The notes below the pieces were generated by a model. The model made no database searches and had not been told where the DNA came from. It saw nothing but the letters and a program-made list of their open reading frames with translations. Source: Escherichia virus TH21. Taken from it: a stretch of 52,087 bases of DNA. The translations under genes were made by a program, and so were the position numbers. Positions 3,057-52,087 of this stretch are shown one piece after another. The number at the start of each line of letters is the position of its first letter. Within the stretch, counting starts at the first letter, position 1. Where the stretch lies: sequence record MT446395.1. One strand, given 5' to 3'.

Positions 3057-4097
3057 ATGACCAAGCCAATGTTTCAATACTTCACGTCAGAAGAAATGAG
3101 CAACGACTTTTACCACAGCAAAGATGAGTGGACCGCCGAGTATGTATCAGGCTCATCACTCAGCAAGATCCACAGTACTTGCCCTGCGGCGTGGAAGTTT
3201 GAAATGAACTCGACGACTAAGGCGCTGGTCTTCGGTACGCAGTCGCATACCAATTTCGAGAGTAAGGCTCTTTTTGAACGTCAATATCGCCGCGCACCGA
3301 AAGAAAGCGAGATTGAAAACGTAATCACTAGCCAGGCGACATTGGCAACGAAATTAAAATCATTTGGCCTGACTGGTACAAGCGGCAAGCAATATCCAGA
3401 GCTAATCAAAATGATGGTTGATTGTGGAGAAGATCTCAACGTCATGTGGCTGATTAATATGATCGCACAGTGTCAGGCGTGGGCCGATGGTGTGGAACTG
3501 GTTAAAGCGGAAGACTACGACGCTTGCGTAAGTATGCGACAGGTTCTTGAAATGATTCCTGAACATAATGCTTGCATGAACAGCGAAACGGCATTCCGTG
3601 AGTATTCTTTGTTCGGCGTAATTTGTGGCGTTAAAGTTAAGGTGCGACTTGACCATGTTGATATTGTTAAAGATCCAGAAGCTATCCGACGCATGGGTTA
3701 CGATCCTGAGATTCACCCTGAAATTGTCGTCATCACTGATTACAAAACGACAATGAGCGCCAACCCGACCGAGTTCCCTCGCCTGGCGTTCAACCTTGGC
3801 TATTACCTCAAGATGGCATTGCAGCGTGACCTGTTCGTTAAGTGCTTTGAAGAAACGCGACCTGTGGTTGTGCGATTGCTGGCCCAGGAGAAGAAGGAGC
3901 CTTACTTGCCTATGGCGTACCGGATGAGTAGCGATCAGCTTAAGATTGGTCGAGCGCAGTACATGAGCGTGATTCACACCTTCTCAATGTGCGAAGCCAA
4001 TGACGTATGGCCTTCATACAATAATGGCGAGCCGGAAGTAGAACTGGATACGCCTGATTGGGTAATGAAACAGTTCAATCATATCCTAGAAGCATAG
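3057..4097 (+). CDS. recombination exonuclease, PD-(D/E)xK-type
   Basis: 346 aa; D...(I)TDYK nuclease-like motif; first gene of exo-annealase-SSB triad. Confidence 0.55.
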   Translation: MTKPMFQYFTSEEMSNDFYHSKDEWTAEYVSGSSLSKIHSTCPAAWKFEMNSTTKALVFGTQSHTNFESKALFERQYRRAPKESEIENVITSQATLATKLKSFGLTGTSGKQYPELIKMMVDCGEDLNVMWLINMIAQCQAWADGVELVKAEDYDACVSMRQVLEMIPEHNACMNSETAFREYSLFGVICGVKVKVRLDHVDIVKDPEAIRRMGYDPEIHPEIVVITDYKTTMSANPTEFPRLAFNLGYYLKMALQRDLFVKCFEETRPVVVRLLAQEKKEPYLPMAYRMSSDQLKIGRAQYMSVIHTFSMCEANDVWPSYNNGEPEVELDTPDWVMKQFNHILEA

Positions 4098-4111
4098 CAC
4101 TTTTTGCTAAA
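4095..4111 (+). promoter_or_regulatory. cassette palindrome TAGCAC-TTT-TTGCTAAA overlapping the exonuclease stop codon
   Basis: TAG stop is the first 3 nt; TATAAT in hairpin ggtgat..atcacc at 4131..4136; leader ATCAAACGAAG. Confidence 0.5.
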
Positions 4112-4173
4112 CACGAACGCGGTGATTTGCTATAATCACCGTAAATCAAACGAAGTAAACAAAGGTATATATA

Positions 4174-5324: not shown

Positions 5325-5346
5325 AGCCCCTTTCGGGGCTTTTTTA
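5325..5346. terminator. bidirectional intrinsic terminator (SSB operon / tail-fibre gene)
   Basis: hairpin agcccc-tttc-ggggct with T-run on both strands. Confidence 0.7.
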
Positions 5347-8058
5347 TTGAATCCTACCACCACTATCACCAATCACACCAGTAAATCCAAGCAATGGCGA
5401 CGATAATCCTATTGGTGTTTGACCATTATCAAATGTGCATCCAATCATACTATCCATTATCGTTACGTTTGGTGATACCCCAGTATCCACAAAGCGACAA
5501 CCATTCCACGAAGCCCTTGGCAGGTTGCTAACTGAGCTTGATGCTGAGTTTGGAAGGGGGTAAACCCTTGTTCCGTTGAAGTTAATCCAGCAATTTTCGT
5601 TTCTACCTCCACTCGAATCCCCTAATCCAAGAAGTGTTCCACCATTAACCTCTATTGTGCAAGGTATAGATGCCCTTGCTGCGATTCCAGTGACGTTATC
5701 AAGCTTAAACCTTGGAACTACGCTTGATGAAGGGAAGGCCGCAACCTCAGTTTGAGTGTAAAGCAAATCAAAAGTTAAAGTACCTTCCCCTCCGCTCATT
5801 ATCGCCCTACCTGGTGTAAAGCCGCTGTTTATGTTTGAGATGGAGACCTCGCAGTTAAAGCCCCTGTTCTTGTTCGCTGAAGCAACTAGAGATGTGCTGT
5901 ATGATAGGTTTGTCATAACAACTGGCTCAACTTTGTTATAGCTTGTAGCATGACTAAAATTCAAGTTATCTACATTTACAACTGATGCTGGCATCGTTGA
6001 TGGGGCAACCCATAGCTTTCTGTAGTTTAACCCAGCAAGTGAGATCCAGGATTTCCTTTGTGCCGGATTGTGCAAGTGCAAAGTAACATCTCGAATAGTA
6101 ACGCTATTTGCCCATGGAACAGCAGACGTATACCCAAAGTCTGCATAGCTCTGGTCTAAAGAGCTTCCTTTAGGTATTCCAGAGTTAAAGCTAACAACAC
6201 TAATCACTGCTGGCAAAGCCTCTGTAGCGAGAGAGAATATGTTGTTTGTTGCAAGTTCAATATGTATATTGCTAACAAAAATAACTCCATCAAAGTAGTT
6301 TCCGTAATCGCCTCTGAAGTAAATAACGGAAAGCATATATATCAATGGGTTGGTTCTATCATACTGATAAAAGTCAGATAGGTAAGGTATAATCCTTGAG
6401 CAGTTAGTTACAGAGAGCCTTCCGCCACCAGTGCCCATAGTTACTCCAAATTCACTTAAAATGCAATTATCTATAGATATGTTGTATCCGTGATAGTGAA
6501 CGTCAACCCTGTTTAAAGTTGAGTTTGTAACATTTAAACCCTGTATTACATTAAATGAAATAGAACCCCACCCTTGAACGGAGTTGATGCAATCAAACTT
6601 AACATCACAGTTACCCCTACCTGAGAATACATATGTGCCATTAATAGTCTCCTGTGAGCTATTCGCCTCGGCAAAAATTCTATTGAAGTAAACCTGACTA
6701 ACGCATAAATCAAGGTAATAAACCTGCCTGATGTTAGCTAACCTTTGGTTTTGAAAATCCCTTAATGTGTGATCATTAAATACAACCTGTGACCTTGAGC
6801 ACTTGAATACAACCCCAGTAACAAACCTAGATGTGTCTATAGTTGCGTTACTTACATTTAAAATGAATGACTCGTCATCTCTTACCCTGGTACTGACATA
6901 ATTGTCATTGTTGAATGAGTGCTCAAGTGGGTATCTAAGTTCACCAAACTTCTCAATCCTGTTTATGCTTGTTTTATATTCAGTGCCTGAAGGAACTCCA
7001 CCTGAAGAACCAAGACTTGATCTGTAGCAAAAGTATTGAGATGATCCAACGGTAACTGTTTTTCTTGATAGAGATGAAAGTGAATCTATATATGTAGTCC
7101 CCTTCGTGTAATTAGCCTTATTTATCATGTTAGTAACATCAACAAGTGGATTTCCAGTGATGTTAAATGTAGGTGTGGTTAAGTATCCAGGTTCAGCGGT
7201 TGATACAGGTTTTATTACACATCCATTAAAATCAACAGATGTCTTAACCTCTATGTTTGCGTCAGCTAGCAACTGGACTTCACTAACGTTGTATAAAACA
7301 GATAGCTTGTTATCATTAGCGAATGAGTGTAAAGATCTTACCTTTTCAGTCTCATCGCCGCTACCTGTAATTCCAAAGTGTGATGAAGGAACACGCCCAT
7401 TGTTAATGTAGTTCTCAACCTCTGAAACAACACCAAGATTTTTCCTTGCTAAATCTTTATCTTGCAAGTCAGAGAAATTAAGGTCTTTACGCAGAAGATT
7501 TGATGAATCAAGTGACGCTGCGTAATCTGCTGCTTCCTGTGCTGAAGCCGCTGCTGCGTTTTTGTCTGATGATGCACTGGCTGCGCTTGCCGCTGCCGCA
7601 TTCTTATCAGCAGTTACCTGGGCTGAATCCGCTGACACTTGAGCCCCAATGGTGATAATTTCTCCATGCTGCGTGTTAATTTGGTTAACGTCATTTGAGA
7701 ATTTATCCTGATCAAAATCTTTAAAAATATCAACAGCTGTTGCAACTTCTGTTTCACGCGACTGATAGTAACGCAGAGTTTCGGCAACATCCTGAGCTAA
7801 ACCCTGAACGGTAATCCCATCGTGAGCAAGAATCGCGTAACCAGTTCCGGAAGGAACAGTTTCAGAATTAGGGTTGTAAACATTAATCTGAGTGTCGCTT
7901 ATGATTTCAGAGATGGTGTAAATCTGCACTGGCTCAGTTTTAAATACAATGGTTGCACCTACGCGAATCAGTGTAAGCGGTGCCTTCCACGTTGTCCCTA
8001 CACCAGTAACCTCGCCATTTGCGGCTAGCGACGCCGTTCCTAAGTCATAAATTGCCAT
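5344..8058 (-). CDS. tail fibre / tailspike-like protein with beta-helix-like body
   Basis: 904 aa from ATG 8058 (AGGAG 9 nt upstream); Asn/Ser/Thr/Val-rich repeats; internal DKNAAAASA duplication. Confidence 0.65.
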   Translation of the reverse strand: MAIYDLGTASLAANGEVTGVGTTWKAPLTLIRVGATIVFKTEPVQIYTISEIISDTQINVYNPNSETVPSGTGYAILAHDGITVQGLAQDVAETLRYYQSRETEVATAVDIFKDFDQDKFSNDVNQINTQHGEIITIGAQVSADSAQVTADKNAAAASAASASSDKNAAAASAQEAADYAASLDSSNLLRKDLNFSDLQDKDLARKNLGVVSEVENYINNGRVPSSHFGITGSGDETEKVRSLHSFANDNKLSVLYNVSEVQLLADANIEVKTSVDFNGCVIKPVSTAEPGYLTTPTFNITGNPLVDVTNMINKANYTKGTTYIDSLSSLSRKTVTVGSSQYFCYRSSLGSSGGVPSGTEYKTSINRIEKFGELRYPLEHSFNNDNYVSTRVRDDESFILNVSNATIDTSRFVTGVVFKCSRSQVVFNDHTLRDFQNQRLANIRQVYYLDLCVSQVYFNRIFAEANSSQETINGTYVFSGRGNCDVKFDCINSVQGWGSISFNVIQGLNVTNSTLNRVDVHYHGYNISIDNCILSEFGVTMGTGGGRLSVTNCSRIIPYLSDFYQYDRTNPLIYMLSVIYFRGDYGNYFDGVIFVSNIHIELATNNIFSLATEALPAVISVVSFNSGIPKGSSLDQSYADFGYTSAVPWANSVTIRDVTLHLHNPAQRKSWISLAGLNYRKLWVAPSTMPASVVNVDNLNFSHATSYNKVEPVVMTNLSYSTSLVASANKNRGFNCEVSISNINSGFTPGRAIMSGGEGTLTFDLLYTQTEVAAFPSSSVVPRFKLDNVTGIAARASIPCTIEVNGGTLLGLGDSSGGRNENCWINFNGTRVYPLPNSASSSVSNLPRASWNGCRFVDTGVSPNVTIMDSMIGCTFDNGQTPIGLSSPLLGFTGVIGDSGGRIQ

Positions 8059-8081
8059 AATAATCAACTCCTATATTTTTG

Positions 8082-8100
8082 TTTAGCACGAATTGCTAAA
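8082..8100 (-). promoter_or_regulatory. perfect 19-bp palindrome TTTAGCA-CGAAT-TGCTAAA between a TATAAT box and the tail-fibre RBS
   Basis: on minus strand: TATAAT (8110..8105), palindrome, AGGAG (8072..8068), ATG 8058. Confidence 0.5.
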
Positions 8101-8125
8101 GTGCATTATAGCATTACGTCAGGCA

Positions 8126-8148
8126 TAAAAAAACCCGCCGTAGCGGGT
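8126..8148 (-). terminator. intrinsic terminator after primase gene
   Basis: minus-strand hairpin acccgc-tacg-gcgggt followed by T7. Confidence 0.6.
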
Positions 8149-8153
8149 AATTG

Positions 8154-9095
8154 TTATGAATACTTATCTATCAGATCCTGCGGCGTATATAACTTTCGCT
8201 CAAGGCCCATTTTGAAGTTTCCGCCGTTCGGCACTACAACTTTTAAATCACGTTCATCTGCCATGTAAAGCGTTCGCAAATCATCAGCTGGACACGCTAC
8301 GCGCAATTCACGATCGCCACGATACCGATAAGCAACAATCTCAAGATTCTCAGGGGAGAAAGTCACCCACACTTCCTGACTGGTCGCCATCTTCACACGA
8401 TAACCATCAATCAGATCGCTTGTCATATATATAGCTGCATCATCCTCGCCACTCCCCAGCTTAACCACTGAGCCGCGAGAATAATCACGCGCAAGGAAAG
8501 TGTATTCGCCATTATCATAAGCAAACATGACGTTGCACATATCCTCATCAATTCCGTCAGGGTGGACCATGTAGCACGGAAGTGCGTGTATTAGCTCCTC
8601 AGTGCCATTCTGGCGCATTTTTACGCCAACGTCATATGAATCTTCGGTTAAGCACTCATACACGCTTAAATCGGTGTTCTCGCGCTTTTCTGTGCGCTCC
8701 ATTACCGCTACGCACGACTCATGATCCGCCATCTTGCCAAGTCCTTTTTCCGGTACGCGCGACGCCCTGCGGTAAGCTTTAGCTTTGTAATCCTGAGGAA
8801 CTTTGCCAAGGAATCGACCAAGGATGTTAATCACTTCACTGTAAGGCTCACCAGTCAGCTTCATCATCCAGCCAACGCCCTTGTCGTTACCACAGCCGTT
8901 ACAGATTGCGCCGCCGTCACCAGGGGAATCCAATTCATCAGTCCACCGGAATCGGTCCTTGCCGCCACAGTAAGGGCAAGGCTGGTGCTTCTTATTGAAC
9001 ACGCCGGGCTGCAATCCACAAATGGATTGTAACGCCTCACGCCATAATCCTTTCATATATGGCAGGACTTCTTCTTTCTGGAACATCTCGTTCAC
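8154..9095 (-). CDS. DNA primase (zinc-ribbon type)
   Basis: 313 aa; CPYCGG...CNGCG zinc-binding motif; GTG start with GGAG 8 nt upstream. Confidence 0.6.
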   Translation of the reverse strand: MNEMFQKEEVLPYMKGLWREALQSICGLQPGVFNKKHQPCPYCGGKDRFRWTDELDSPGDGGAICNGCGNDKGVGWMMKLTGEPYSEVINILGRFLGKVPQDYKAKAYRRASRVPEKGLGKMADHESCVAVMERTEKRENTDLSVYECLTEDSYDVGVKMRQNGTEELIHALPCYMVHPDGIDEDMCNVMFAYDNGEYTFLARDYSRGSVVKLGSGEDDAAIYMTSDLIDGYRVKMATSQEVWVTFSPENLEIVAYRYRGDRELRVACPADDLRTLYMADERDLKVVVPNGGNFKMGLERKLYTPQDLIDKYS

Positions 9096-9627: not shown

Positions 9628-9635
9628 CACCTCAA

Positions 9636-9652
9636 TAGCACTTTTTGTTAAA
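9636..9652 (+). promoter_or_regulatory. cassette palindrome (TAGCAC-TTT-TTGTTAAA) upstream of helicase
   Basis: followed by TATTATAAC and leader ATCGAACGAAC; ATG 9715. Confidence 0.45.
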
Positions 9653-9714
9653 CATTGGTTTCGATGGTTGTTATTATAACGTCAATCGAACGAACATGAA
9701 AGGCATTTAATACT

Positions 9715-11817: not shown

Positions 11818-12242
11818 TTACAGATAAAGGCGACTACCTGGAATATTACACTCCAGACAAATCGGATACATGGACCGAAAGCAAACACCAGATCGATTGC
11901 GTGACCTGGACTAAAGTTAGGCATGGCGACCTATTATTCTGGCACACCGTTAATGAGGGCGAGAAGACGATGCATTCAGCCCTTGTTGACGGTCAGAGCG
12001 GGTTATTGAAGGGGGTTAGTGACTTTGTATTCCTTCTCGGCCTGTTCGGTAAATATCCGTTCGGGGCCATAGAATTGAAGCGAGTAAATAAAAGCGGGAA
12101 AGGCAAGGCATCACCAGTCAGCAAGAAGCAGAAAGATTTCCTCCGGCGTGTCCGTGAGCGTGGAGGATTCGCGGCGGTGGCGTACGGCCAGGAGGAATAC
12201 AAGAAAGCTGTTGCTGATATGCTGAATAGCACGAATTGCTAA
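11814..12242 (+). CDS. VRR-NUC-type nuclease
   Basis: 142 aa; D...ELK PD-(D/E)xK core (GVSDFVF...GAIELKR); ATGA overlap with helicase. Confidence 0.55.
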   Translation: MITDKGDYLEYYTPDKSDTWTESKHQIDCVTWTKVRHGDLLFWHTVNEGEKTMHSALVDGQSGLLKGVSDFVFLLGLFGKYPFGAIELKRVNKSGKGKASPVSKKQKDFLRRVRERGGFAAVAYGQEEYKKAVADMLNSTNC

Positions 12243-12243
12243 A
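12227..12243 (+). promoter_or_regulatory. cassette palindrome TAGCACGAATTGCTAAA overlapping the end of the VRR-NUC gene
   Basis: encodes ..STNC*; hairpin ggtgaggtg..cacctcatc with TATTAT; leader ATCGAAACGAAG. Confidence 0.5.
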
Positions 12244-12308
12244 GACGAATCGGTGAGGTGGTGTATTATCACCTCATCGAAACGAAGTAACCAACCAAGG
12301 AAATTAAA

Positions 12309-13312: not shown

Positions 13313-13543
13313 ATGAGCAATGTACAAATTAATTTAACCGACAAAGGTCAGTATCTTTTATTCCGCGCCATCGTTTGTGAGGTGTTAACGAAAGCAGGAT
13401 TTAAGGGTGACGCTTGGGCGTTCTCGGATCTGGATATGTCATTCGAAGAAGTGCAGGATCAGCCGATTAACACATGGGCTAAAGCAATACGAAAGGATAT
13501 GGAAGACTATAAACGCGATTGCCCCGAAGATTTCGCAGAATAG
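13313..13543 (+). CDS. hypothetical protein
   Basis: 76 aa from ATG 13313 (GGAG 8 nt upstream); ORF track 13304 is a GTG extension. Confidence 0.45.
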   Translation: MSNVQINLTDKGQYLLFRAIVCEVLTKAGFKGDAWAFSDLDMSFEEVQDQPINTWAKAIRKDMEDYKRDCPEDFAE

Positions 13544-13557
13544 CACTAATTGCTAAA
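13541..13557 (+). promoter_or_regulatory. cassette palindrome TAGCACTAATTGCTAAA
   Basis: TAG stop overlaps; GC hairpin tacccgccgccgcgcgggta; leader ACGAGACGAGGAA. Confidence 0.5.
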
Positions 13558-14544: not shown

Positions 14545-15687
14545 ATGGCTATTCAAAAAATCACTGACGAACAATTCATTGCTGAGCGCGAAGCTGGTAA
14601 AACACTGCGCCAAATCGCCCAGGAATACGGGATGAACATTCGAACCGTTGAGCAGCGATCAAGTCGCCTGGCAAAGCGAGGTGAGTTCCACGGCAATAAG
14701 CACGTAAGCGTACACGTACCGGAGGGTTTTCATGTTAAGGGCACATCGACTATGATTCGCGCTGACGGTTCTGAGGTCGTGCGCTGGGTTAAGACCGATC
14801 AGGACAAGGAAAAGTTAGCCGCCATGATGGATGCTGCAATTGAAGCATTCTGTGACGAACTCCCGCGCGCGGCGGCTCAGCCTATCCTTGGTGAGCCTCA
14901 CTATGATGAAAATCTCCTGGCGCTCTACCCTGTATTCGATCTTCACATCGGTGCTATGGCCCACAAGCATGAATGCGGTGAGAACTACAGTACAGACATC
15001 TCAGAGAAAGTGCTGAAAAACTTCTTTGATTATTCCGTAGGCGTATCACCGAAGGCAAAGAAAGCGGTTCTGTTAATCGGCGGTGACTTCCTTCACTCTG
15101 ATGGCCTGGATGCTGTAACGCCTGCAAGCGGTCACGTACTGGATCAGGATAGTAGATACGCTAAGCTCGTTCACGTTGCAATCCGTTCCGTCCGCCGCGC
15201 GGTGGCGCAAATGCTGGATAAGCACGAAGAGGTCGAAATTCAGATCATTGAAGGGAACCATGACCAGGCGGGTATGATTTGGCTCCGCGCTGCAATGGCT
15301 GCATACTTTGAAGATGAGGTGCGCGTAACGGTTGATGTTTCACCTATGATTCTTCACCGTACGAAGTGGGGTAAAACATTGCTGGGATACACTCATGGTC
15401 ACACCATGAAGAAAGCAGATACTCGACTGGCGGCAATGGCTACTGACTTCCGCGAAGAGTTCGGTACGAGCAAATATATTTACACTCACTCAGGTCACTG
15501 GCATCACCAGACGATCACGGAAGGCACGCTGGGTATTGATGAGGTTCACGGTCAGCTTGGCGCGAAAGATGCCTACGCGGCGCGCGGCGGTTGGCGCTCA
15601 TATCGCCAGGCAGCGGTAATTGTCTACTCCAAGGAGTTCGGCGAAGTAGGTCGCTTCGTTTACCGTCCTGAAATGAGCGACATCTAA
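14545..15687 (+). CDS. HTH domain fused to calcineurin-like metallophosphoesterase
   Basis: 380 aa; N-terminal HTH-like KTLRQIAQEYGMNIRTVEQ; GDFLHSDG, GNHD, GHTH, GHWHH metal-binding motifs. Confidence 0.55.
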   Translation: MAIQKITDEQFIAEREAGKTLRQIAQEYGMNIRTVEQRSSRLAKRGEFHGNKHVSVHVPEGFHVKGTSTMIRADGSEVVRWVKTDQDKEKLAAMMDAAIEAFCDELPRAAAQPILGEPHYDENLLALYPVFDLHIGAMAHKHECGENYSTDISEKVLKNFFDYSVGVSPKAKKAVLLIGGDFLHSDGLDAVTPASGHVLDQDSRYAKLVHVAIRSVRRAVAQMLDKHEEVEIQIIEGNHDQAGMIWLRAAMAAYFEDEVRVTVDVSPMILHRTKWGKTLLGYTHGHTMKKADTRLAAMATDFREEFGTSKYIYTHSGHWHHQTITEGTLGIDEVHGQLGAKDAYAARGGWRSYRQAAVIVYSKEFGEVGRFVYRPEMSDI

Positions 15688-15704
15688 TAGCACGAATTGC
15701 CTAA
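15688..15704 (+). promoter_or_regulatory. cassette palindrome (TAGCACGAATTGCCTAA)
   Basis: directly after TAA stop; hairpin tatagcgcc-ggaa-ggcgctata. Confidence 0.45.
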
Positions 15705-19796: not shown

Positions 19797-19813
19797 TTTA
19801 GCAATTCGTGCTA
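19797..19813 (-). promoter_or_regulatory. cassette palindrome TAGCACGAATTGCTAAA overlapping the stop of the methyltransferase-like gene
   Basis: followed on minus strand by hairpin agccc-ttcg-gggct plus T-run, TATATT, leader ATCGAAACGAAAC. Confidence 0.5.
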
Positions 19814-20494
19814 TTTGGTTAAATGATTTGCCAGGTATACGGCGCGCGCAAATCCACGAGGAGTCAGTGAGCGCAACTGCTTGGTTTTTGCAGACTTCCC
19901 GCCGAGGTACTTCCATCCCCAAAAGAATCCAATGTTAATCGGGCCAGGCTTCTTCACTGGCTCAACGAATCCGTTACCATGCCAGATGCAAGTTTTCTTC
20001 GTGTAGCCGTCGTATTTCGGCATTTTTTCGTGGTACGGAAGATCGTGAGCTTTCATGAGTCCGCCGTATTCATACGGATTGAAGTAGAAGTCAGGCTTAC
20101 GCCACAGGCTTGACAGCTTGCCTACCGGATTCTCGACCATCCAGGGTGCCTGGAAGTGATTTCCGACTTCCTCGACGAGCTTCGCATTAGCCAGGGCGTA
20201 CGCCAGTTCATCATCACTGCGCTCATGCTGTGATCCAGACTGAGAGAACAGCGTGCAATCAGGGAATCCGATAACCATCTGCGCCGGAGGAAGGCCGAGC
20301 AATTCACACTTGGTAATGAAATCCTTGTCAATCCACATGTTGACGTAGTGAATGTTCTCATGCTTCATCTTGATGTGATATTCGCCATGATTGCCGGAGT
20401 CCGCGTTGAAGCAGTAGACGGTGTGACCATCTTCCGCCCATGGGAGGCCAGCGATACCAGAACCGTCGAACAAGCAGTAAATTACCTTTTTCAT
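19811..20494 (-). CDS. C5-cytosine methyltransferase-like protein (short, orphan)
   Basis: 227 aa; motif I-like CLFDGSGIAG, motif IV-like GFPDCTLFSQSG, motif VI-like VENP, in canonical order. Confidence 0.4.
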   Translation of the reverse strand: MKKVIYCLFDGSGIAGLPWAEDGHTVYCFNADSGNHGEYHIKMKHENIHYVNMWIDKDFITKCELLGLPPAQMVIGFPDCTLFSQSGSQHERSDDELAYALANAKLVEEVGNHFQAPWMVENPVGKLSSLWRKPDFYFNPYEYGGLMKAHDLPYHEKMPKYDGYTKKTCIWHGNGFVEPVKKPGPINIGFFWGWKYLGGKSAKTKQLRSLTPRGFARAVYLANHLTK

Positions 20495-21340: not shown

Positions 21341-21404
21341 TTTTACTTCCTCTTTGTGTACTTCGTTTCGATGAAATGATTATGCCTCATTCCGTGAGGC
21401 TTCG

Positions 21405-21421
21405 TTTAGCAATTCGTGCTA
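21405..21421 (-). promoter_or_regulatory. cassette palindrome TAGCACGAATTGCTAAA
   Basis: preceded by TAA stop; hairpin gcctca..tgaggc, CATAAT, leader ATCGAAACGAAG. Confidence 0.5.
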
Positions 21422-21422
21422 T

Positions 21423-21854
21423 TTACGGTTTTTTCGGTGGGCGCTGCTTGTGCACGTAAAACGGCGTCGGCGTAATGCAAGGCTGATAACCAGTCAGGAT
21501 ACGATTGCTTGCTTCCGTAGCGTGCGCAACTGCCTCAACCTGTTGAGATGTCGCCACCTGGCTACGGCGCAACAACCGACTTTTGCTCATCCGCTGGTTA
21601 GTGCCGCTTAACTTCATATACTGATAATCCAACGGCTCGAACGCGACACGCTTCTCCATGAACACCTTGCGGCTACTGGCAACGAATACCTTACTGCCTT
21701 TGCGTCCAGCAATGCTGCGAATGGAAGTGTACATTGACTCATGAATTTGAGCCTTGAAGCGCCAGGCTCCGTACGCCCAAATATACATCCGGCCTGATGG
21801 CGTGATGAATCGCGTGGTGCCATCCGTCGCCTTAAAGATGATGCCGTGTCTCAT
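21423..21854 (-). CDS. hypothetical basic protein
   Basis: 143 aa, Arg/Lys-rich. Confidence 0.45.
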   Translation of the reverse strand: MRHGIIFKATDGTTRFITPSGRMYIWAYGAWRFKAQIHESMYTSIRSIAGRKGSKVFVASSRKVFMEKRVAFEPLDYQYMKLSGTNQRMSKSRLLRRSQVATSQQVEAVAHATEASNRILTGYQPCITPTPFYVHKQRPPKKP

Positions 21855-22537: not shown

Positions 22538-22592
22538 CTCTATATCCTTCGTTTCGATGGAGTGAATCTTAGCAAATCACTCCTGATTGGTA

Positions 22593-22609
22593 ATTAGCAA
22601 ATCGTGCTA
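22593..22609 (-). promoter_or_regulatory. cassette palindrome TAGCACGATTTGCTAAT
   Basis: followed by 7-bp-stem hairpin ggagtga..tcactcc and leader ATCGAAACGAAGG. Confidence 0.45.
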
Positions 22610-22610
22610 T

Positions 22611-22937
22611 TTATGCGATGTCGAACTCCGCTGCGTACGCTTCTTTGATACCCGCTTCACGCATGGTGCGCTTGCTGATTTTTCGCGGGTGACGGTACTG
22701 AGCGTTAGGCTTAATCCACCAGAAGCAAGCAGTTTCACGAACGATTTCATAAGCGCTGTAACGAGTGAAAATATCGCGTTCTGCGTCCGGCTGGGATACA
22801 CAGGTCAGGCTCTTAACTTCCGGCTTGATTTCTTCCCAAACGAATGAATCCATACCGTTAACCTTGCAAGCTACCATCACATATTCAACACCGTTTTCGA
22901 TTTTGATGATGTGGTTACCGCGATTTTCGTATTTCAT
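22611..22937 (-). CDS. hypothetical protein
   Basis: 108 aa. Confidence 0.45.
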   Translation of the reverse strand: MKYENRGNHIIKIENGVEYVMVACKVNGMDSFVWEEIKPEVKSLTCVSQPDAERDIFTRYSAYEIVRETACFWWIKPNAQYRHPRKISKRTMREAGIKEAYAAEFDIA

Positions 22938-22997: not shown

Positions 22998-23014
22998 TTT
23001 AGCAATTCGTGCTA
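22998..23014 (-). promoter_or_regulatory. cassette palindrome TAGCACGAATTGCTAAA
   Basis: followed by TATTAT and leader ATCGAAACGAGAC. Confidence 0.5.
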
Positions 23015-23016
23015 TT

Positions 23017-23468: not shown

Positions 23469-23485
23469 ATTAGCAAAAAGTGCTA
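23469..23485 (-). promoter_or_regulatory. cassette palindrome TAGCACTTTTTGCTAAT at the head of the minus-strand operon
   Basis: followed by TATTAT and the conserved leader. Confidence 0.45.
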
Positions 23486-23499
23486 TTCGTTCGATTTAT

Positions 23500-24573: not shown

Positions 24574-25127
24574 TGTTTGATTTCAACGAAGATAAGTTAA
24601 CTGATGACCAAGTGATGGAAGTCGCCAGGCAAGATAACCTTCTGCCATTGCGCGTGGCAATCAACGCAAACGGATACCGTCAAGCTTTCAAGTTCTGGTG
24701 CAGCGCAGAAGAGATGCTGCGCGTCAAACTGAGCCACAAACAAAGCGTCGTGGTTAAAAGGATTAGCCACCAGGGCCGCAACGGAAAGGGAGTGGTTGGC
24801 ATTAGATCTCTATACGAGGCAATCCGAAAGGTCCAGCCATTCGTCGGGCGCGAAGGGATTATGCATGACCTGACAAATAACATCATCCCAGCACTACAGG
24901 AGGCAGGAATTGTTTGCCTCATTGGCGATAAGATTTATGTGCATCCGGCCCTGGTGGGAATGGATGAACGAGACGTGTACACCTGGTGCAGTCAGCACCG
25001 ATCCGACGCGCGACGTTCTCACTACGTGCCACCGCAGACAACAATCCATGGCTATGATGCCGATGAGGTGGAGAAGGCCATCCAGTTCTACCGGAAAGCG
25101 AAATCTCTCCTGAACGGTGAATGCTAA
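24573..25127 (+). CDS. domain-deleted paralogue of the 17725..19308 P-loop protein (N- and C-terminal segments only)
   Basis: 184 aa; MFDFNEDKL..PLRVAINANGYRQ and GKGVVG.RSLYEA..K..PF...CLIGDKIY match both ends of the 527-aa protein; no Walker A. Confidence 0.5.
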   Translation: MFDFNEDKLTDDQVMEVARQDNLLPLRVAINANGYRQAFKFWCSAEEMLRVKLSHKQSVVVKRISHQGRNGKGVVGIRSLYEAIRKVQPFVGREGIMHDLTNNIIPALQEAGIVCLIGDKIYVHPALVGMDERDVYTWCSQHRSDARRSHYVPPQTTIHGYDADEVEKAIQFYRKAKSLLNGEC

Positions 25128-25342
25128 TGCTTATAAAATGTGTGTATGTAAGGCAAGCCAATCACCACAACCTTTCAGTTGTAAATGGCGGGATATACGT
25201 GGCTAAGCCAATACCTTGTTTTAATGGCTCATACTACATCAAGGTTGATGGCAATGAGTACATAGTGAAGACGATAGGTGAAGCTCTTATGATAAAGAGC
25301 CTTGGTGTTATAATGGCTAAATTCGAAATCGTTCGTGAATAG
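25127..25342 (+). CDS. hypothetical protein
   Basis: 71 aa from ATG 25127 (ORF track 25121). Confidence 0.4.
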   Translation: MLIKCVYVRQANHHNLSVVNGGIYVAKPIPCFNGSYYIKVDGNEYIVKTIGEALMIKSLGVIMAKFEIVRE

Positions 25343-25356
25343 CACAAATTGCTAAA
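25340..25356 (+). promoter_or_regulatory. cassette palindrome TAGCACAAATTGCTAAA
   Basis: TAG stop overlaps; hairpin gggtagtcagctatgattaccc; leader ACGAAGAGGAA. Confidence 0.5.
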
Positions 25357-25412
25357 CAACAAATCGGGTAGTCAGCTATGATTACCCTATCAACAACGAA
25401 GAGGAAATGATC

Positions 25413-26027: not shown

Positions 26028-26314
26028 AGAAACTAATTTTATTAGCAGCACTGGCTCTGGCTGGATGTGATTTCGGAAGCACCCGTGTAGATTCAGAGGC
26101 TCGGCAGAAGATGCCAGTGAATGTCAACGATCGCGTCCAGGTTGTGAAGATTCAGGAGTTCAGGGATGAACTGGCATATGAGAACGTCAGAGCGATATAC
26201 GTCATCACCGATAAGGACACTGGTCAGGAATACATCGGATTAAGCGGTGTCGGGATCGTGGAAGTTGGTCGCCATGGTTGCGGCAAGGGATGCTCCAGAG
26301 AAGATGAACGATAG
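26024..26314 (+). CDS. small lipoprotein
   Basis: 96 aa; signal peptide with lipobox LAGC. Confidence 0.55.
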   Translation: MKKLILLAALALAGCDFGSTRVDSEARQKMPVNVNDRVQVVKIQEFRDELAYENVRAIYVITDKDTGQEYIGLSGVGIVEVGRHGCGKGCSREDER

Positions 26315-26328
26315 CACTTTTTGTTAAA
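26312..26328 (+). promoter_or_regulatory. cassette palindrome TAGCACTTTTTGTTAAA
   Basis: TAG stop overlaps; hairpin gtgcatttgctatagtgcac. Confidence 0.45.
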
Positions 26329-27035: not shown

Positions 27036-27130
27036 AGTTCAAATTAGTTGACGTGCTGCAATTGCTGTGTATCGGTTTATCGTGGGTGATGCTGTTCCTG
27101 GTGGTAATCTTCCTGGCTGTGGTGAAATAG
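27032..27130 (+). CDS. 32-aa hydrophobic membrane peptide
   Basis: not in ORF track; single predicted TM helix; ATGA overlap; stop TAG is part of the next cassette. Confidence 0.35.
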   Translation: MKFKLVDVLQLLCIGLSWVMLFLVVIFLAVVK

Positions 27131-27144
27131 CACGAATTGGTAAA
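27128..27144 (+). promoter_or_regulatory. cassette palindrome (TAGCACGAATTGGTAAA)
   Basis: followed by ctgactggTATACT. Confidence 0.45.
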
Positions 27145-27198: not shown

Positions 27199-27387
27199 AT
27201 GACCACTTACACCACGATTTACACTCACTGCGGCAAGGCGTTCACGGCACTGGCTGAGGATATGGAATATCTGCCTTGGCACCAGGTGTGGAAGATGCAC
27301 AAAATCACTTCCACCGGAACGCAGGAGTGGTTCTTGAGAAAGATTTACGTGGCTGAGGTTATTCACCACAACGAAAAATTCGAATAG
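27199..27387 (+). CDS. hypothetical protein
   Basis: 62 aa from ATG 27199 (RBS AAGGGAGA). Confidence 0.4.
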   Translation: MTTYTTIYTHCGKAFTALAEDMEYLPWHQVWKMHKITSTGTQEWFLRKIYVAEVIHHNEKFE

Positions 27388-27401
27388 CACTTTTTGTTAA
27401 A
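27385..27401 (+). promoter_or_regulatory. cassette palindrome TAGCACTTTTTGTTAAA
   Basis: hairpin aaggccatttgatatagtggcctt. Confidence 0.45.
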
Positions 27402-27467
27402 CCTTCCGCAAGGCCATTTGATATAGTGGCCTTATTGAAGCAAAACAACCAATCAGAGGATTTGCAG

Positions 27468-27670
27468 ATGTTTACTGAAAAAGAGTTTGAGCAGTTTTCC
27501 GCCTGGTCAATATGTCAGGCAGCGCTGACCAGATGGATCGCATAAACAGCCGTCTTGAGATGCCAAAGTTCATCGAAGCGGTAGGCCGCAAGGCCTGCGA
27601 TCGCATGTGGCACTTAATCGAGCATTACGGCGTAACACCAGCAACACTTAAATCGGAGCACATGAAATGA
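27468..27670 (+). other. two overlapping small ORFs in different frames (27468..27545 and 27512..27670): possible frameshifted gene or overlapping micro-genes
   Basis: first ORF has RBS AGAGGA; second lacks an RBS and ends in ATGA overlap with the next gene. Confidence 0.3.
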
Positions 27671-28432: not shown

Positions 28433-28634
28433 CAGTAAAGGTATTGAATTTTGCGCGGTCGGAGGTGTGGTCCTGCGCACTGGTGGCGGGTACGGGATTA
28501 TTAACACCTCAGGCATCACACAGGATCAGTTGGTAAAGGGCATCCAGGCTGGAATCTTTACCTATCACTCATCGTTGACGGCTGATGATTACATCACACT
28601 TGATGCTGCGGTTCGCGTTGGGTTCATCGAATAG
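28416..28634 (+). CDS. hypothetical protein
   Basis: 72 aa. Confidence 0.4.
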   Translation: MQVYTNSKGIEFCAVGGVVLRTGGGYGIINTSGITQDQLVKGIQAGIFTYHSSLTADDYITLDAAVRVGFIE

Positions 28635-28648
28635 CACCTTTTGTTAAA
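28632..28648 (+). promoter_or_regulatory. cassette palindrome TAGCACCTTTTGTTAAA
   Basis: followed by hairpin with ctgactggTATAAT. Confidence 0.5.
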
Positions 28649-29733: not shown

Positions 29734-30354
29734 ATGTCAAAGATTATCATTCTCAACGGTCCAGCTTCGGTTGGTAAAGACACGATTGGCAACGCCCTAG
29801 CAGCAGATTACAACTGCATCCCGACCAGCTTCAAGCGTCCGATGTTTGAGATTGCAGCATCCATCCTTGGGGCCAGGGCTTTTTCAAAGTTCATCACAGC
29901 ATACGACGACCGCGATCAGAAAGAGATGCCTCAGAGCTTCCTTGGTGGCAAGACATGCCGCGAGTTCATGATCTGGATTAGCGAGTCTGTGGTAAAGCCG
30001 CTATTTGGCAACCAGCAATTCGGAAAGCTGATGAGCGAACATATCAAGCTGTGTGACGAAGGATTCTGTTTTGTGTGTACTGATGGCGGCTTCCCTGATG
30101 AAGTGATCAGGCTCGTTGAAGATGGTCACGATGTTACCCTGGTCCGCTTGTTCATGGATGGCAAGACTTTCGCGGGAGATAGCCGTGATTACATCCGCAT
30201 CAAGCAATCGCACTTCCCTGATTACAAGAAATATAACGAGCATGATGTGCATCTGGTAAATGGTGATGTTGATGATGGCGTCCTTAAAGTAGTTCGCGCT
30301 TGCTTGGTTAGTCCTTCAATGGATGATGATTGGGCAGACGATATTCCTTGGTAA
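29734..30354 (+). CDS. deoxynucleoside monophosphate kinase with acidic SSB-tip-like C-terminus
   Basis: 206 aa; P-loop GPASVGKDT; C-terminus DDDWADDIPW. Confidence 0.6.
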   Translation: MSKIIILNGPASVGKDTIGNALAADYNCIPTSFKRPMFEIAASILGARAFSKFITAYDDRDQKEMPQSFLGGKTCREFMIWISESVVKPLFGNQQFGKLMSEHIKLCDEGFCFVCTDGGFPDEVIRLVEDGHDVTLVRLFMDGKTFAGDSRDYIRIKQSHFPDYKKYNEHDVHLVNGDVDDGVLKVVRACLVSPSMDDDWADDIPW

Positions 30355-30355
30355 A

Positions 30356-30372
30356 TAGCACGAATTGCTAAA
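30356..30372 (+). promoter_or_regulatory. cassette palindrome TAGCACGAATTGCTAAA
   Basis: followed by terminator-like hairpin cccgc-tacg-gcggg plus TTTTGTT and TATAGT. Confidence 0.5.
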
Positions 30373-30588: not shown

Positions 30589-30987
30589 ATGAAATTACGT
30601 TGTGTTAAAATACATCCAGGGTTAGCGCTGCTGTTTAATGATTACTTTCACGTCGGTCAAGTATATGAGGCTAAGCGCCGACCGAACCGTTTCCTCAACG
30701 TGGCTGATGTCACTGATGGCTATAACGGTCTTTCATGGTACGCCGTCCAGAAAGGGAGCAAGTTCAACCTTAATCTGGCAAGCGGCCCAGCAGTCACTTT
30801 CGTGGTAGTAAAAGGTCCGCGCCGCCTTGTTGTAACTGAGAGGCGCGTAACTGGAGTCCTTAATGATAAGCGTAAGTTCCGCCGCATGTGCCGCCAGTAT
30901 GGAAAACTTCGATTCACCGAACCTGGAATGTTCTGCTTTATCGCCTTCGCGGCAATGAAAAAGAATGCACGAAATCACCAGCGATAG
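30589..30987 (+). CDS. hypothetical basic protein
   Basis: 132 aa, Arg/Lys-rich. Confidence 0.45.
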   Translation: MKLRCVKIHPGLALLFNDYFHVGQVYEAKRRPNRFLNVADVTDGYNGLSWYAVQKGSKFNLNLASGPAVTFVVVKGPRRLVVTERRVTGVLNDKRKFRRMCRQYGKLRFTEPGMFCFIAFAAMKKNARNHQR

Positions 30988-31001
30988 CACTTTTTGTTAA
31001 A
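30985..31001 (+). promoter_or_regulatory. cassette palindrome TAGCACTTTTTGTTAAA
   Basis: hairpin ggggtagctgtatagttacccc; leader ATCGAAACGAACGAGGAA. Confidence 0.5.
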
Positions 31002-32613: not shown

Positions 32614-32637
32614 AGCATCCTTCGGGGTGCTTTTTTT
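32614..32637 (+). terminator. intrinsic terminator ending the accessory operon
   Basis: hairpin agcatcc-ttcg-gggtgct plus T7. Confidence 0.65.
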
Positions 32638-32649
32638 ATGCCTGCAATC

Positions 32650-32658
32650 TGGTATAAT
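32650..32658 (+). promoter_or_regulatory. extended -10 promoter (TGGTATAAT) for the packaging/structural operon
   Basis: TGnTATAAT read directly about 30 nt upstream of the TerS start. Confidence 0.4.
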
Positions 32659-39194: not shown

Positions 39195-39288
39195 AATGCA
39201 TAAAAATCTGTTGCGCGCTTAACAGAAAGTGCTATTATAGAGCCGTGAACTTAATCACGGCTTTCTAACAAACAAAGGAAAACAAATT

Positions 39289-49076: not shown

Positions 49077-49100
49077 AACCCGCCTTGCGCGGGTTTTTTT
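49077..49100 (+). terminator. intrinsic terminator/attenuator before J
   Basis: hairpin acccgc-cttgc-gcgggt plus T7. Confidence 0.6.
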
Positions 49101-49148
49101 GTGCCTGTATAATGAAACTTCGATAAATCGCACGAAAGGCTAAACATC

Positions 49149-52087
49149 ATGATTAAAAATAGTGTAGTGACGGGCCGAAAGGGTGGCAGCAGCAAGCCGC
49201 ATACCCCACAGGAGATGGAAGATAACCTGATCTCAATCAACAAGATTAAGGTTTTGCTCGCTGTTAGTGATGGCGAGGTTGACGCGAACTTCTCATTAAA
49301 GGACTTATATCTTAATGATGTTCCTGTAATTGCACCATCCGGCGAGGTTAACTATGAAGGCGTAACGGCTGAGTTTCGCCCTGGAACGCAGACTCAGGAT
49401 TACATCAAAGGCTTCAACGACACGGCGGCTGAGTTCACTGTAGGCCGTGAATTGAAAACAACGACGCCTTACGTGATCTCGGTAACGAATAAACAGCTAT
49501 CAGCCGTCCGCGTAAAAATCCTGATGCCTCGCGGCGTTACAACGAAAGAAAACGGCGATATGGTCGGCGTGGTCGTGAAGTGGGCAGTAGATATGGCGGT
49601 AGATGGCGGGAACTACCAGGAAGTTTTATCAGACGTCATCGACGGAAAGACCATTAGCGGATATGACAAAACAAAGCGAATCGACCTCCCAGCGTTCAAT
49701 AGTCAGGTTCTATTGCGTGTTCGACGCGTTACGGCTGATTCAACTGATGCGCGCATCGTTGATACGATAAACATCCAGTCTTATGCCGAAGTGGTTGATG
49801 CTAAATTCCGTTACCCTCTGACTGGTCTTGTTTACGTCGAGTTTAACAGCGAGCTATTCCCGCAGATCCCAAGTATTAGCACGAAAAAGAAATGGAAGCT
49901 CATTAACGTTCCGAGCAACTATAATCCAGAGCTTCGCGAGTATAACGGCACATGGGATGGCAGCTTCAAAAAAGCGTGGTCAAATAATCCGGCGTGGGTG
50001 CTTTATGATTTGATTACCAATCAGCGCTACGGACTCGACCAGCGGGAATTGGGAATCGCGGTTGATAAGTGGTCACTCTATGACGCTGGTCAATACTGCG
50101 ACCAAAAAGTGCCAGACGGTCACGGAGGAACGGAGCCTCGCTATCTTTGCGATGTGGTGATTCAGTCTCAGGTTGAAGCGTACAATCTTGTGCGAGACAT
50201 TTGCTCAATATTCCGAGGAATGAGCTTCTGGAACGGTGAGAGCCTTTCAATTGTCATCGACCGACCGAGAGAGGCGTCTTATATTTTCACTAACGATAAC
50301 GTCGTTGATGGCTCATTTGCCTATACGTTCGCAAGTGAAAAAAGCATGTACACAACCTGCAACGTCACGTTCGACGACGAGCAGAACATGTACAGCCAGG
50401 ACATTGAGGGCGTGTTCGACCTTAACGCTTCATTGCGCTTCGGCCATAACCCGACAAGCATCACGGCGATCGGATGCACTCGACGCAGTGAAGCGAATCG
50501 ACGGGGCCGCTGGGTTCTCAAAACAAACCTTCGCAGCACAACGGTGAGTTTTGCAACTGGCCTTGAGGGTATGATTCCGATGATTGGCGACGTGGTAGCA
50601 ATCGCTGATAACTTCTGGTCAAGCAATCTGACGCTTTCGTTATCAGGTCGTGTGATGGAAGTGTCAGGCCTGCAAGTGTTCACTCACTTCAAGGTTGATG
50701 CGCGCGCTGGTGATTTCATTATCGTGAACAAGGCTGACGGAAATCCGGTGCGCCGGACGATTTCAAAAGTGTCTGCGGACGGGAAAACCATTGAGCTTAA
50801 CGTTGGATTCGGCTTTGATGTTCAACCCAACACAGTGTTCGCAATCGACCGCACTGATGTGGCCTTGCAGCAATACGTTGTAACCGGAATCACGAAGGGA
50901 GACGGCGACGATGAGTTCACGTACAGCATTACGGCAGTTGAATACGATCCGAACAAATACGACGAGATTGACTACGGCGTAAATATTGATGACCGACCAA
51001 CCAGTATTGTAGATCCTGACAACATGCAGCCACCAAAAAACATTGTTGTTTCATCATACTCTCGAATTGTGCAGGGGATGAGCGTTGAGACAATGGTGAT
51101 AGGGTGGGATAAAGTTCAGTACGCGAGCAAGTACGACGTGCAGTGGAGAAAGGATAACGGTAACTGGATGAACGTACCGCGTACAGCAAGCTCAGAGGTT
51201 GAGGTTGAAGGGATTTATGCGGGTAATTATCACGTACGCGTAAGGAGCATATCAAGCGGTGGAAACACGTCTCCATGGTCTGATGTTGTCAGCGTTGGGT
51301 TGACTGGTAAGATTGGGAAGCCAGATAAACCAACAGTAATAACCGCATCTAACGACCAGGTATTTGGGATACGGGTTAAATGGGGATTCCCTGAAGGTTC
51401 TGGCGACACTGCCTACACTGAGTTGCAGCAGATACCAGATAATGGCGCGGGAGGTCACACAGGAGAGGAGAACGCAAGCCTGTTAACAATGATCCCATAC
51501 CCTCAGTACGAGTACTGGCACTCGACACTACCGGCAGGATATGTGAACTGGTACAGGGCAAGATTGGTAGACAGGATTGGTAACGCCTCTGACTGGTCTG
51601 ACATTGTTCGCGGAATGGCAAGCGATGACGTTGAGTCAATAATTGGAGAAATAAAGGTTGATATCGAGAATTCCGAGGGGTTTAAGTACCTACAGCAGAA
51701 CGCCATTGAGTCAAACGGAGCTATTCAGGCGCAGGCGGAATCAATTCTTGAAAACGCACTTGCAAACGACACGGACGTGCGACGAATGACCAAGGAAAAC
51801 GGCAAGCGTAAGGCTGAATACGTTCAGGCGGTGAATCTTATTGCTGATGAAACTCAGGCGCGCGTAGAGGCTCTCACTCAGCTTAAAGCGCAGATTGATG
51901 ATGATGTCGTAGCCTCCATAACTGAAGTTCAGACGGCACTAGCCACCGAAACGGAAGCAAGGACCACGGCGGATACAGCTCTGAGTTCTCAGCTTGGAGA
52001 TACTCAGGCAGCGCTGAATGAAAAACTTGATTCCTGGGTGGATGCAGAATCAGCTGGCGCCCAGTACGGCGTTAAGTTAGGTCTAAA
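49149..52087 (+). CDS. tail tip / host-specificity protein (lambda J-like), 5' part; runs off the window end and continues at 873..1317
   Basis: open frame from ATG 49149 with no stop to 52087; in frame with ORF 85..1317 through the 872-bp repeat; full length about 1127 aa. Confidence 0.75.
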   Translation, partial: MIKNSVVTGRKGGSSKPHTPQEMEDNLISINKIKVLLAVSDGEVDANFSLKDLYLNDVPVIAPSGEVNYEGVTAEFRPGTQTQDYIKGFNDTAAEFTVGRELKTTTPYVISVTNKQLSAVRVKILMPRGVTTKENGDMVGVVVKWAVDMAVDGGNYQEVLSDVIDGKTISGYDKTKRIDLPAFNSQVLLRVRRVTADSTDARIVDTINIQSYAEVVDAKFRYPLTGLVYVEFNSELFPQIPSISTKKKWKLINVPSNYNPELREYNGTWDGSFKKAWSNNPAWVLYDLITNQRYGLDQRELGIAVDKWSLYDAGQYCDQKVPDGHGGTEPRYLCDVVIQSQVEAYNLVRDICSIFRGMSFWNGESLSIVIDRPREASYIFTNDNVVDGSFAYTFASEKSMYTTCNVTFDDEQNMYSQDIEGVFDLNASLRFGHNPTSITAIGCTRRSEANRRGRWVLKTNLRSTTVSFATGLEGMIPMIGDVVAIADNFWSSNLTLSLSGRVMEVSGLQVFTHFKVDARAGDFIIVNKADGNPVRRTISKVSADGKTIELNVGFGFDVQPNTVFAIDRTDVALQQYVVTGITKGDGDDEFTYSITAVEYDPNKYDEIDYGVNIDDRPTSIVDPDNMQPPKNIVVSSYSRIVQGMSVETMVIGWDKVQYASKYDVQWRKDNGNWMNVPRTASSEVEVEGIYAGNYHVRVRSISSGGNTSPWSDVVSVGLTGKIGKPDKPTVITASNDQVFGIRVKWGFPEGSGDTAYTELQQIPDNGAGGHTGEENASLLTMIPYPQYEYWHSTLPAGYVNWYRARLVDRIGNASDWSDIVRGMASDDVESIIGEIKVDIENSEGFKYLQQNAIESNGAIQAQAESILENALANDTDVRRMTKENGKRKAEYVQAVNLIADETQARVEALTQLKAQIDDDVVASITEVQTALATETEARTTADTALSSQLGDTQAALNEKLDSWVDAESAGAQYGVKLGL

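Follow-up and report, generated by a model that had tools for sequence, protein, structure and literature searches.

A marbox-type repeat inverted over the lateral tail-fibre promoter of Escherichia virus TH21, a possible operator for host MarA/SoxS/Rob-type proteins

The lateral tail-fibre gene of Escherichia virus TH21 (sequence record MT446395.1; the whole stretch of 52,087 nucleotides [nt] is referred to as the window) runs along the minus strand from an ATG at 8058 (5344..8058, 904 amino acids; phrog_24092, tail fiber protein, E 1.6e-62), and a DNA primase gene (8154..9095, minus strand; PF08273; phrog_510, E 1.3e-95) lies directly upstream. Here we describe a repeat in the promoter region between these two genes. 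Read along the minus strand, the region begins with an intrinsic terminator after the primase gene, found by terminator scan as the hairpin ACCCGC-TACG-GCGGGT (8148-8133) with a run of seven T's (8133-8127); in an alignment of relatives, its stem varies by compensatory pairs (ACCTCC/GGAGGT, ACCCTC/GAGGGT, and ACCGCC/GGCGGT). The motif ATGCCTG follows (8126-8120), and the combined T7-ATGCCTG block (8120..8133) lies in the -35 region of a predicted promoter that lacks a -35 hexamer and carries an extended -10 element, TGcTATAAT (8113-8105; TG at 8113-8112 and TATAAT at 8110-8105). Judged from the position of this -10, transcription is predicted to start near 8098/8097. The repeat begins 4 nt past the extended -10, after the bases gcac (8104-8101), and reads TTTAGCAATTCGTGCTAAA on the minus strand (8100-8082); it spans approximately -2 to +17 of the predicted start and ends 24 nt ahead of the ATG. 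A ribosome-binding site, AGGAG (8072-8068), stands 9 nt before the ATG.

A preliminary description, made from the sequence alone, had placed a TATAAT box, the repeat, AGGAG, and the ATG upstream of a tail-fibre gene; on re-reading the sequence, all of these coordinates are correct, and the open reading frame at 5344-8058 does match the tail-fibre PHROG. The same description called the repeat a perfect 19-bp palindrome, which it is not: it is a 7-5-7 inverted repeat, whose 7-nt arms enclose an asymmetric spacer, ATTCG, and the flanks are asymmetric in most relatives as well (cTTAGCA...TGCTATT). Approximately three lone inverted repeats with 7-nt arms and a 5-nt spacer are expected by chance in 52 kb (52,000 x 4^-7). 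The significance of the tail-fibre element comes from its membership in a repeat family and not from the inverted repeat as such.

This family has been reported before. A 2024 re-annotation of phage TLS describes a 21-nt direct repeat, aaATAGCACnnnTTGnTAAAA, at 21 places, oriented along the direction of transcription and approximately 76 nt before start codons, and notes the same direct repeat in T1, Rtp, and Rogue1; its authors leave the function open and suggest stoperators, enhancer-binding sites, or UP elements (PMC11447400). In the window, TTTAGCANNNNNTGCTAAA with at most two mismatches has 9 matches (0.31 expected), and a 22-nt weight matrix made from the early copies has 21 matches scoring at least 14 (0.26 expected). 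By its consensus the tail-fibre copy belongs to the same intergenic sequence family (its plus strand reads gTTTAGCACGAATTGCTAAAg), and it is the family repeat turned around, with a matrix score of 18.7 backward versus 7.6 forward. The TLS paper lists only copies in the direction of transcription (PMC11447400), whereas the tail-fibre copy is inverted, lies after the -10, and stands 24 nt before its ATG. TLS itself has no copy at the tail-fibre gene.

Eighteen early/middle promoters in the window share a single arrangement, in which a forward repeat is followed after 19 to 21 nt by a -10 hexamer, often with a preceding TGn, and then by a conserved leader (CATCGAAACGAAG), a ribosome-binding site, and an ATG. 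The repeat is oriented along transcription in 18/18 of them. On the plus strand, the early 19-mers lie at 4093-4111, 13539-13557, 15686-15704, 25338-25356, 26310-26328, 27126-27144, 27383-27401, 28630-28648, 30354-30372, and 30983-31001, with a further copy at 12225..12243 that exemplifies the geometry discussed below (GCAC 31 nt upstream of TATTAT); on the minus strand, they lie at 2605-2623, 19797-19815, 21405-21423, 22593-22611, 22998-23016, and 23469-23487. The 18th copy of the early set is that of the helicase promoter (9634-9652, plus strand). Information content per position shows the copies to be conserved asymmetrically: C8, T12, and A17-19 are virtually invariant, and position 15 takes either C or T. 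C8 and T12 are mutually non-complementary, and A17-19 do not mirror positions 1-3. Asymmetric conservation of this kind is expected of a monomer site, not of a dyad site.

Marboxes are asymmetric 20-bp sites bound by the monomeric AraC-type activators MarA, SoxS, and Rob (and by RamA in Klebsiella). The phage repeat resembles the marbox of the mar-sox-rob system in its GCAC A site, its (T)GYYAAA B site, and the 7 nt between CACG and AAA. A MarA consensus derived from chromatin immunoprecipitation, GCAHWWWWTGYYAAA (PMC6900184), occurs in the window 7 times exactly (0.05 expected) and 16 times with at most one mismatch (1.2 expected). Conversely, a matrix made from the phage copies alone ranks the authentic mar marbox, ATGCCACGTTTTGCTAAATC, top within the 351 bp upstream of marR and ranks the Rob box, AGCACTGAATGTCAAAAC, top upstream of micF. 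The classical marbox consensus, AYnGCACnnWnnRYYAAA, reportedly given by Martin et al. 1999, is fitted exactly by 15 copies in the window (0.14 expected). The tail-fibre copy shares these features in the opposite orientation: read on the plus strand as TTTAGCACGAATTGCTAAA (8082..8100), it contains the A site GCAC at 8086-8089 and the B site TAAA at 8097-8100, and the segment GCACGAATTGCTAAA (8086-8100, plus strand) has one mismatch to the MarA consensus. The apparent palindrome, GCA...TGC, is inherent in the marbox consensus.

The placement of the early copies agrees with that of known activating sites. At class II promoters, a forward marbox overlaps the -35 and is centered between -36 and -55 (PMC12052159), and the micF marbox is centered at approximately -41 (PMC8811837). 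The 18 early repeats are centered near -41 in one fixed orientation. In Escherichia coli, micF reads GCAC-N31-TAGAAT (using the RefSeq micF 5' end); in the window, the distance from GCAC to the -10 is exactly 31 nt in 12 of the 18 copies (range, 30 to 32), and the exact 31-nt spacing is found in 15 copies in T1 and 17 in Rtp, while the Klebsiella phage KP36 carries the same cassettes. The base contacts made by Rob are known from a cryo-electron microscopy structure of the micF activation complex (PMC9178005); when the -10 is placed at -12 to -7, the phage bases G-47, A-45, G-38, C/T-37, and A-35/-34 align with the Rob-contacted bases of micF. The GCAC spacing and the center near -41 therefore mark the early promoters, as judged by sequence, as putative class II marbox promoters, which resemble micF in being asymmetric, forward, and overlapping the -35, with GCAC 31 nt upstream of the -10. 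Together, these agreements suggest that the repeat is probably a site for host MarA/SoxS/Rob-type proteins. The putative phage sites also differ from host marboxes: they number approximately 20 copies per 51 kb in the genome of a virulent phage, are far more uniform, and come together with the conserved leader and a hairpin that surrounds the -10. In the literature on T1-like phages, we found no paper connecting them with marbox, MarA, SoxS, or Rob and none noting an inverted repeat copy on the tail-fibre promoter; a literature search with the sequence strings themselves returned unrelated matches only.

A second candidate for the binding protein is encoded nearby. The minus-strand order at this locus is a Cro-like phage regulator (9148..9630, 160 amino acids; phrog_2856), primase, and lateral tail fibre, with the helicase gene divergent on the plus strand; gene order around the tail-fibre locus agrees with T1, Rtp, TLS, and KP36, and the regulator gene is conserved beside primase and tail fibre in these four phages and in ESCO41. 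AlphaFold predicts an all-alpha, Cro-type core with a single helix-turn-helix for this protein (predicted local distance difference test score [pLDDT], 86; structural matches, 3bd1 and N15 Cro). Such proteins bind inverted repeats as dimers, and the regulator could in principle bind as a dimer to TAGCA-N5-TGCTA, whose half-sites are 10 bp apart center to center, activating from approximately -41.5 and occluding at approximately +8. A repeat more uniform than host marboxes would suit such a binder, and no other copy is as symmetric as the one at the window's tail-fibre gene. However, the invariant C8 and T12 are not complementary, the flanks read AA...AAA, T at position 15 breaks the palindrome in approximately 40% of copies, and the orientation of the repeat follows the direction of transcription strictly, a constraint that a symmetric dimer would not impose. 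Positions 69, 71, and 73 of the recognition helix are highly variable across 28 homologues, and also across the window, T1, KP36, and TLS, even though the repeat is identical in those phages; moreover, the repeat agrees base for base, and in register, with an independent host consensus. Because strict directionality and asymmetric conservation disfavor a symmetric dimer, the binder is probably not a dimer reading the palindrome, and we regard the regulator as an unlikely occupant of the repeat, a question on which its predicted Cro-like fold is neutral.

We also searched for a phage-encoded protein of the MarA type. With MarA and SoxS as queries, tblastn found no match in the window (best E 0.25), and a small MarA/SoxS/Rob hidden Markov model gave, against all 419 stop-to-stop frames, only a 32-amino-acid match of 9 bits. 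This match lies in a 51-amino-acid open reading frame (27512-27667, plus strand; MSGSADQMDRINSRLEMPKFIEAVGRKACDRMWHLIEHYGVTPATLKSEHMK) and is probably due to chance. A MarA-like binder encoded by the phage was rejected, as neither method found one in the window.

At the tail-fibre promoter, the repeat has none of the class II geometry: instead of being forward, overlapping the -35, and centered near -41, it is inverted and covers approximately -2 to +17. We compared this upstream region in 21 relatives, 19 of which are in the alignment. The combination of TGnTAnAAT, a gap, and the inverted repeat is kept in 17/21, including T1, Braunvirinae, Rogunavirinae, and ESCO41; the gap between the -10 and the repeat is fixed in length at 4 nt (5 in T1) and variable in its bases. 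TGnTAnAAT is present at the tail-fibre position in 18/19 aligned relatives, the exception being TLS, and the 16 aligned sequences that carry the repeat all have GTGC (the complement of GCAC) unchanged. The variant TTAACA in phage MM01 obeys the Y rule of the marbox yet breaks the palindrome. Between T1 and the window, the copy is retained although the intergenic sequence is otherwise barely alignable.

This pattern bears on a reading in which the tail-fibre copy is not regulatory at all and instead marks where cassettes were shuffled, as a scar or anchor at the edge of an exchangeable module made up of the tail-fibre N terminus and its promoter. Such a module is shared among genera: the segment 7493-8135, comprising the N-terminal region of the tail fibre with promoter and operator, has 79 to 91% identity with otherwise different phages (Braunvirinae, Rogunavirinae, and others), the similarity of the module to other genera ends at the primase terminator, where BLAST matches stop at approximately 8135, and the C-terminal receptor-binding part of the fibre is exchanged between phages. 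Repeats also stand at many gene junctions, the late-region copies vary between phages, and four relatives (TLS and the IMG/VR phages L015, L016, and L020) have no tail-fibre copy. A scar would not, however, be expected to show a -10 gap held at 4 to 5 nt while its sequence varies, a GTGC without exception in 16/16 sequences, permitted variants that follow marbox rules, or persistence from T1 to the window amid barely alignable sequence. We consider it quite unlikely that the copy is such a remnant.

The alternative that we favor, tentatively and with somewhat less than even confidence, is that the tail-fibre repeat is an inverted marbox that serves as a host-factor operator and occludes the late promoter, a proposal drawn from the position and sequence of the site. 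At the early promoters, a bound marbox protein would activate transcription through contacts with sigma-70 region 4 and with the alpha C-terminal domain. At the tail-fibre promoter, the same type of protein, bound over approximately -2 to +17, would sit on DNA that has to enter the cleft of RNA polymerase, and because it would occupy DNA that polymerase must engage, the site would act as a negative operator. The promoter might thus be held down early in infection, while marbox-binding factor is plentiful, and released upon loss or dilution of that factor. Release could come about as short-lived MarA and SoxS are lost once host synthesis stops, or by titration, as each replicated genome would add approximately 20 competing, stronger sites; this timing model is speculation.

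Repression by proteins of this family has precedents. Schneiders 2004 and McMurry & Levy 2010 reportedly describe MarA/SoxS/Rob repression at purA, hdeA, and rob. MarA, SoxS, and Rob repress where the marbox overlaps the core promoter, as at pbpG and, as cited in the same work, at purA and hdeA (PMC12052159). The pbpG case resembles our proposal in that a family of activators represses purely through the location of its site (PMC12052159). The known MarA/SoxS/Rob repression sites overlap the -35 or the spacer, whereas the tail-fibre site covers the start and the early transcribed region. Activation from this position is a further possibility, given that MarA activates flgB P2 through a base-pair distortion next to the -10, from a site in the spacer at -16 to -30 (PMC12781870); activation of this type is unlikely at the tail-fibre copy, because a site covering +1 to +17 would get in the way of polymerase.

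Further readings of the tail-fibre copy can be set against its position and its relatives. An RNA-level role would have the repeat form a 5'-terminal hairpin on the tail-fibre mRNA, stabilizing the message or tuning translation, and the first bases of the leader can indeed be paired into a 7-bp stem. The computed fold (-7.0 kcal/mol, z = -0.22) is nevertheless no more stable than that of shuffled sequences, a transcript starting at 8098/8097 as predicted would lack part of the 5' arm, the sense RNA of the MM01 variant (TTAACA...TGCTA) would contain an A-C mismatch, and orientation is not the same in the T1, J, and head-gene copies; we judge this role very improbable. Still more remote, in our estimation, is the reading of the copy as a forward marbox of a plus-strand promoter producing RNA antisense to primase. 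Its plus-strand orientation does equal that of the early cassettes, but there is no -10 at 30 to 32 nt (the best hexamer, CATAAA, lies at 34 nt within the A-run of the terminator), no downstream open reading frame or conserved leader, and likewise no -10 in T1 and Rtp.

We rejected two promoter assignments for the repeat. Sigma-54 promoters carry GG-N10-GC, with TGGCAC-N5-TTGC spacing between the -24 and -12 elements; the repeat reads TAGCAC-N3-TTGC and is 2 bp too short. As a plain -35, TTGCTA is too far from the -10, at 22 nt. The marbox tail TAAACA stands at the canonical 17 nt from the -10 but has only 4/6 matches to a -35.

The tail-fibre copy is not alone in its placement. The preliminary description held that it follows its TATAAT unlike every other copy, and that the other copies lie upstream of TATAAT; the latter is correct for 18 copies, which lie upstream of a -10, and fails at the central tail fibre J gene, on the regulator side of the helicase promoter, and before the major head gene, where a weaker copy likewise follows a -10-like box. 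At J, a weaker forward repeat, AATCGCACGAAAGGCTAAA (49126..49144, plus strand; score 18.6; phrog_31), lies 12 nt after TATAAT (49108-49113) and abuts the J ATG at 49149; its T1 equivalent is at 25022. The copy at 9634-9652 serves two sides, being forward at the helicase promoter and inverted 20 nt after a minus-strand TATAAT before the regulator gene, a layout that T1 shares (position 36445/36459). Inversion is not unique either: a weaker inverted repeat (39218..39236, minus strand; score 16.9; phrog_264) lies between a terminator and the major head gene (ATG 39289), with equivalents at T1 15085 (score 26.6) and KP36 15384. In T1, a forward copy also overlaps the terS -10. The late-region copies in the window thus differ in orientation, tail-fibre and head being inverted and J forward. 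What endures of the earlier proposal that one protein activates the early genes and blocks this late gene is its positional logic, with 18 copies at approximately -41 and the tail-fibre copy within the RNA polymerase footprint; a dimer on a palindrome, and the uniqueness of this gene among late genes, do not.

The tail-fibre promoter shares an architecture with that of terS (32632..32658, plus strand; phrog_606), which reads T7-ATGCCTG-N8-TGgTATAAT and has no repeat downstream: in both, a terminator is followed by T6-7, (A/G)TGCCTG, 8 to 9 nt, and TGnTATAAT. The string TTTTTT(A/G)TGCCTG recurs behind terminators at 32632 (terS) and 49095 (J), and in the J promoter (49095-49113) the same T-run and TGCCTG block directly adjoins TATAAT. 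This late-type promoter class is also found in T1, Rtp, and KP36, and ATGCCTG could be a candidate site for a late regulator.

An 84-bp spacer (9631-9714) separates the divergent helicase and regulator genes, and in it the plus-strand -10 (TATTAT) and a minus-strand TATAAT overlap. The single repeat in this spacer is in the activating position for the helicase gene and inside the leader of the regulator gene, and the spacer may act as a switch between both genes.

Several points weigh against the operator reading and against the assignment of the repeat to host proteins. We found no transcript-start or RNA-seq data for Drexlerviridae, the family of T1-like phages to which the window belongs, in the literature. 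The tail-fibre copy departs from the consensus at marbox position 1, and its score of 18.7 compares with 27 to 33 for the early copies. The four relatives without a tail-fibre repeat still carry early cassettes elsewhere, and L015, L016, and L020 retain the extended -10 despite the missing repeat; the tail-fibre operator is therefore dispensable and would be an optional modulator. The repeat is more uniform than host marboxes, which a more specific phage-encoded binder or concerted evolution of the cassettes would also explain. In unstressed cells, MarA and SoxS are scarce and Rob is largely inactive, and T1-like phages nevertheless grow well on laboratory strains. Finally, it is not obvious how repression by a constitutive host factor would be lifted late.

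Most early cassettes carry a hairpin between the repeat and the leader (e.g., 4112-4149, 12244-12281, 25357-25394, and 27402-27439), with TGn and the first -10 bases in its loop and its 3' arm occupying the -10 to +1 region. The stems differ in sequence (e.g., CGGTGAT/ATCACCG, AAGGCCA/TGGCCTT, GGGGATT/AATCCCC, and GGGTAG/TACCC). Across 52 cassettes from the window, T1, and Rtp, the mean hairpin z-score is -2.6, and 65% score below -1.5; some of these hairpins are true terminators, but the majority have no T-run. The leader (C)ATCGAAACGAAG starts at approximately +1 in many early cassettes (e.g., 12277-12287, and 21361-21371 and 22547-22557 on the minus strand) and is found in T1, Rtp, and KP36 too. 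In Rtp (L021), full forward cassettes with the -10 at 31 nt occur within the late structural region at 6314, 8423, 16301, and 21391, where they precede HNH endonuclease genes and small inserted genes, which suggests that the cassette travels with mobile or accessory genes.

Two other systems offer comparisons. Arbiol et al. 2010 reportedly describe the promoter-early stem-loop (PeSL) cassettes of the T4-like phages RB49 and phi1. PeSLs are likewise short repeated regulatory cassettes of promoter and stem-loop between small early genes and likely substrates of modular shuffling; they differ in being plain strong sigma-70 promoters with terminators, with no activator-type site in class II register. 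The stoperators of mycobacteriophage L5 are similar in that many asymmetric copies of one protein-binding site lie in short intergenic spaces. However, stoperators bind a phage repressor, act in lysogeny, and block elongation, whereas Drexlerviridae are virulent; stoperators keep one orientation relative to transcription, whereas the window's late-region copies differ in orientation; and most window copies stand at activating distance from a -10.

The window as a whole is a T1-like siphophage of the Drexlerviridae. Among named phages, Nouzillyvirus ESCO41 is its closest relative, and some unclassified coliphages share approximately 90% identity with the window. Positions 1-872 are identical to 51216-52087, an exact 872-bp direct terminal overlap, and the unit genome is therefore 51,215 bp. 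The J gene spans the junction of this overlap (49149 to 1317).

The repeat itself has been published, and marboxes, activation at class II promoters, and position-dependent repression are textbook knowledge; we did not find the link between them in the literature. In its broadest form, the proposal is that Drexlerviridae wire their gene expression to host MarA/SoxS/Rob, with approximately 20 class II marboxes driving the early genes, start-site marboxes holding late promoters off (lateral tail fibre, J, and head; terS in T1), and the switch timed by decay or titration of the host factor. We think this general scheme rather doubtful as a whole. If it were true, bile salts, salicylate, oxidants, and antibiotics would all affect phage growth, and the early-to-late switch would take its timing from a host factor instead of from a regulator that the phage encodes.

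The conserved intergenic repeat of T1-like phages had so far been described with no role assigned to it. Should it prove to be a marbox, it would point to a host factor that can be tested in a large phage family with therapeutic use and supply a simple positional rule for early versus late promoters, activating from -41 and blocking at approximately +8. The tail-fibre copy would be the cleanest natural test case of this rule, since it places an operator on a conserved extended -10 promoter of which natural operator-less variants exist. A marbox would also tie phage expression to the regulators of multidrug resistance, such that antibiotics, bile, and salicylate could alter phage performance.

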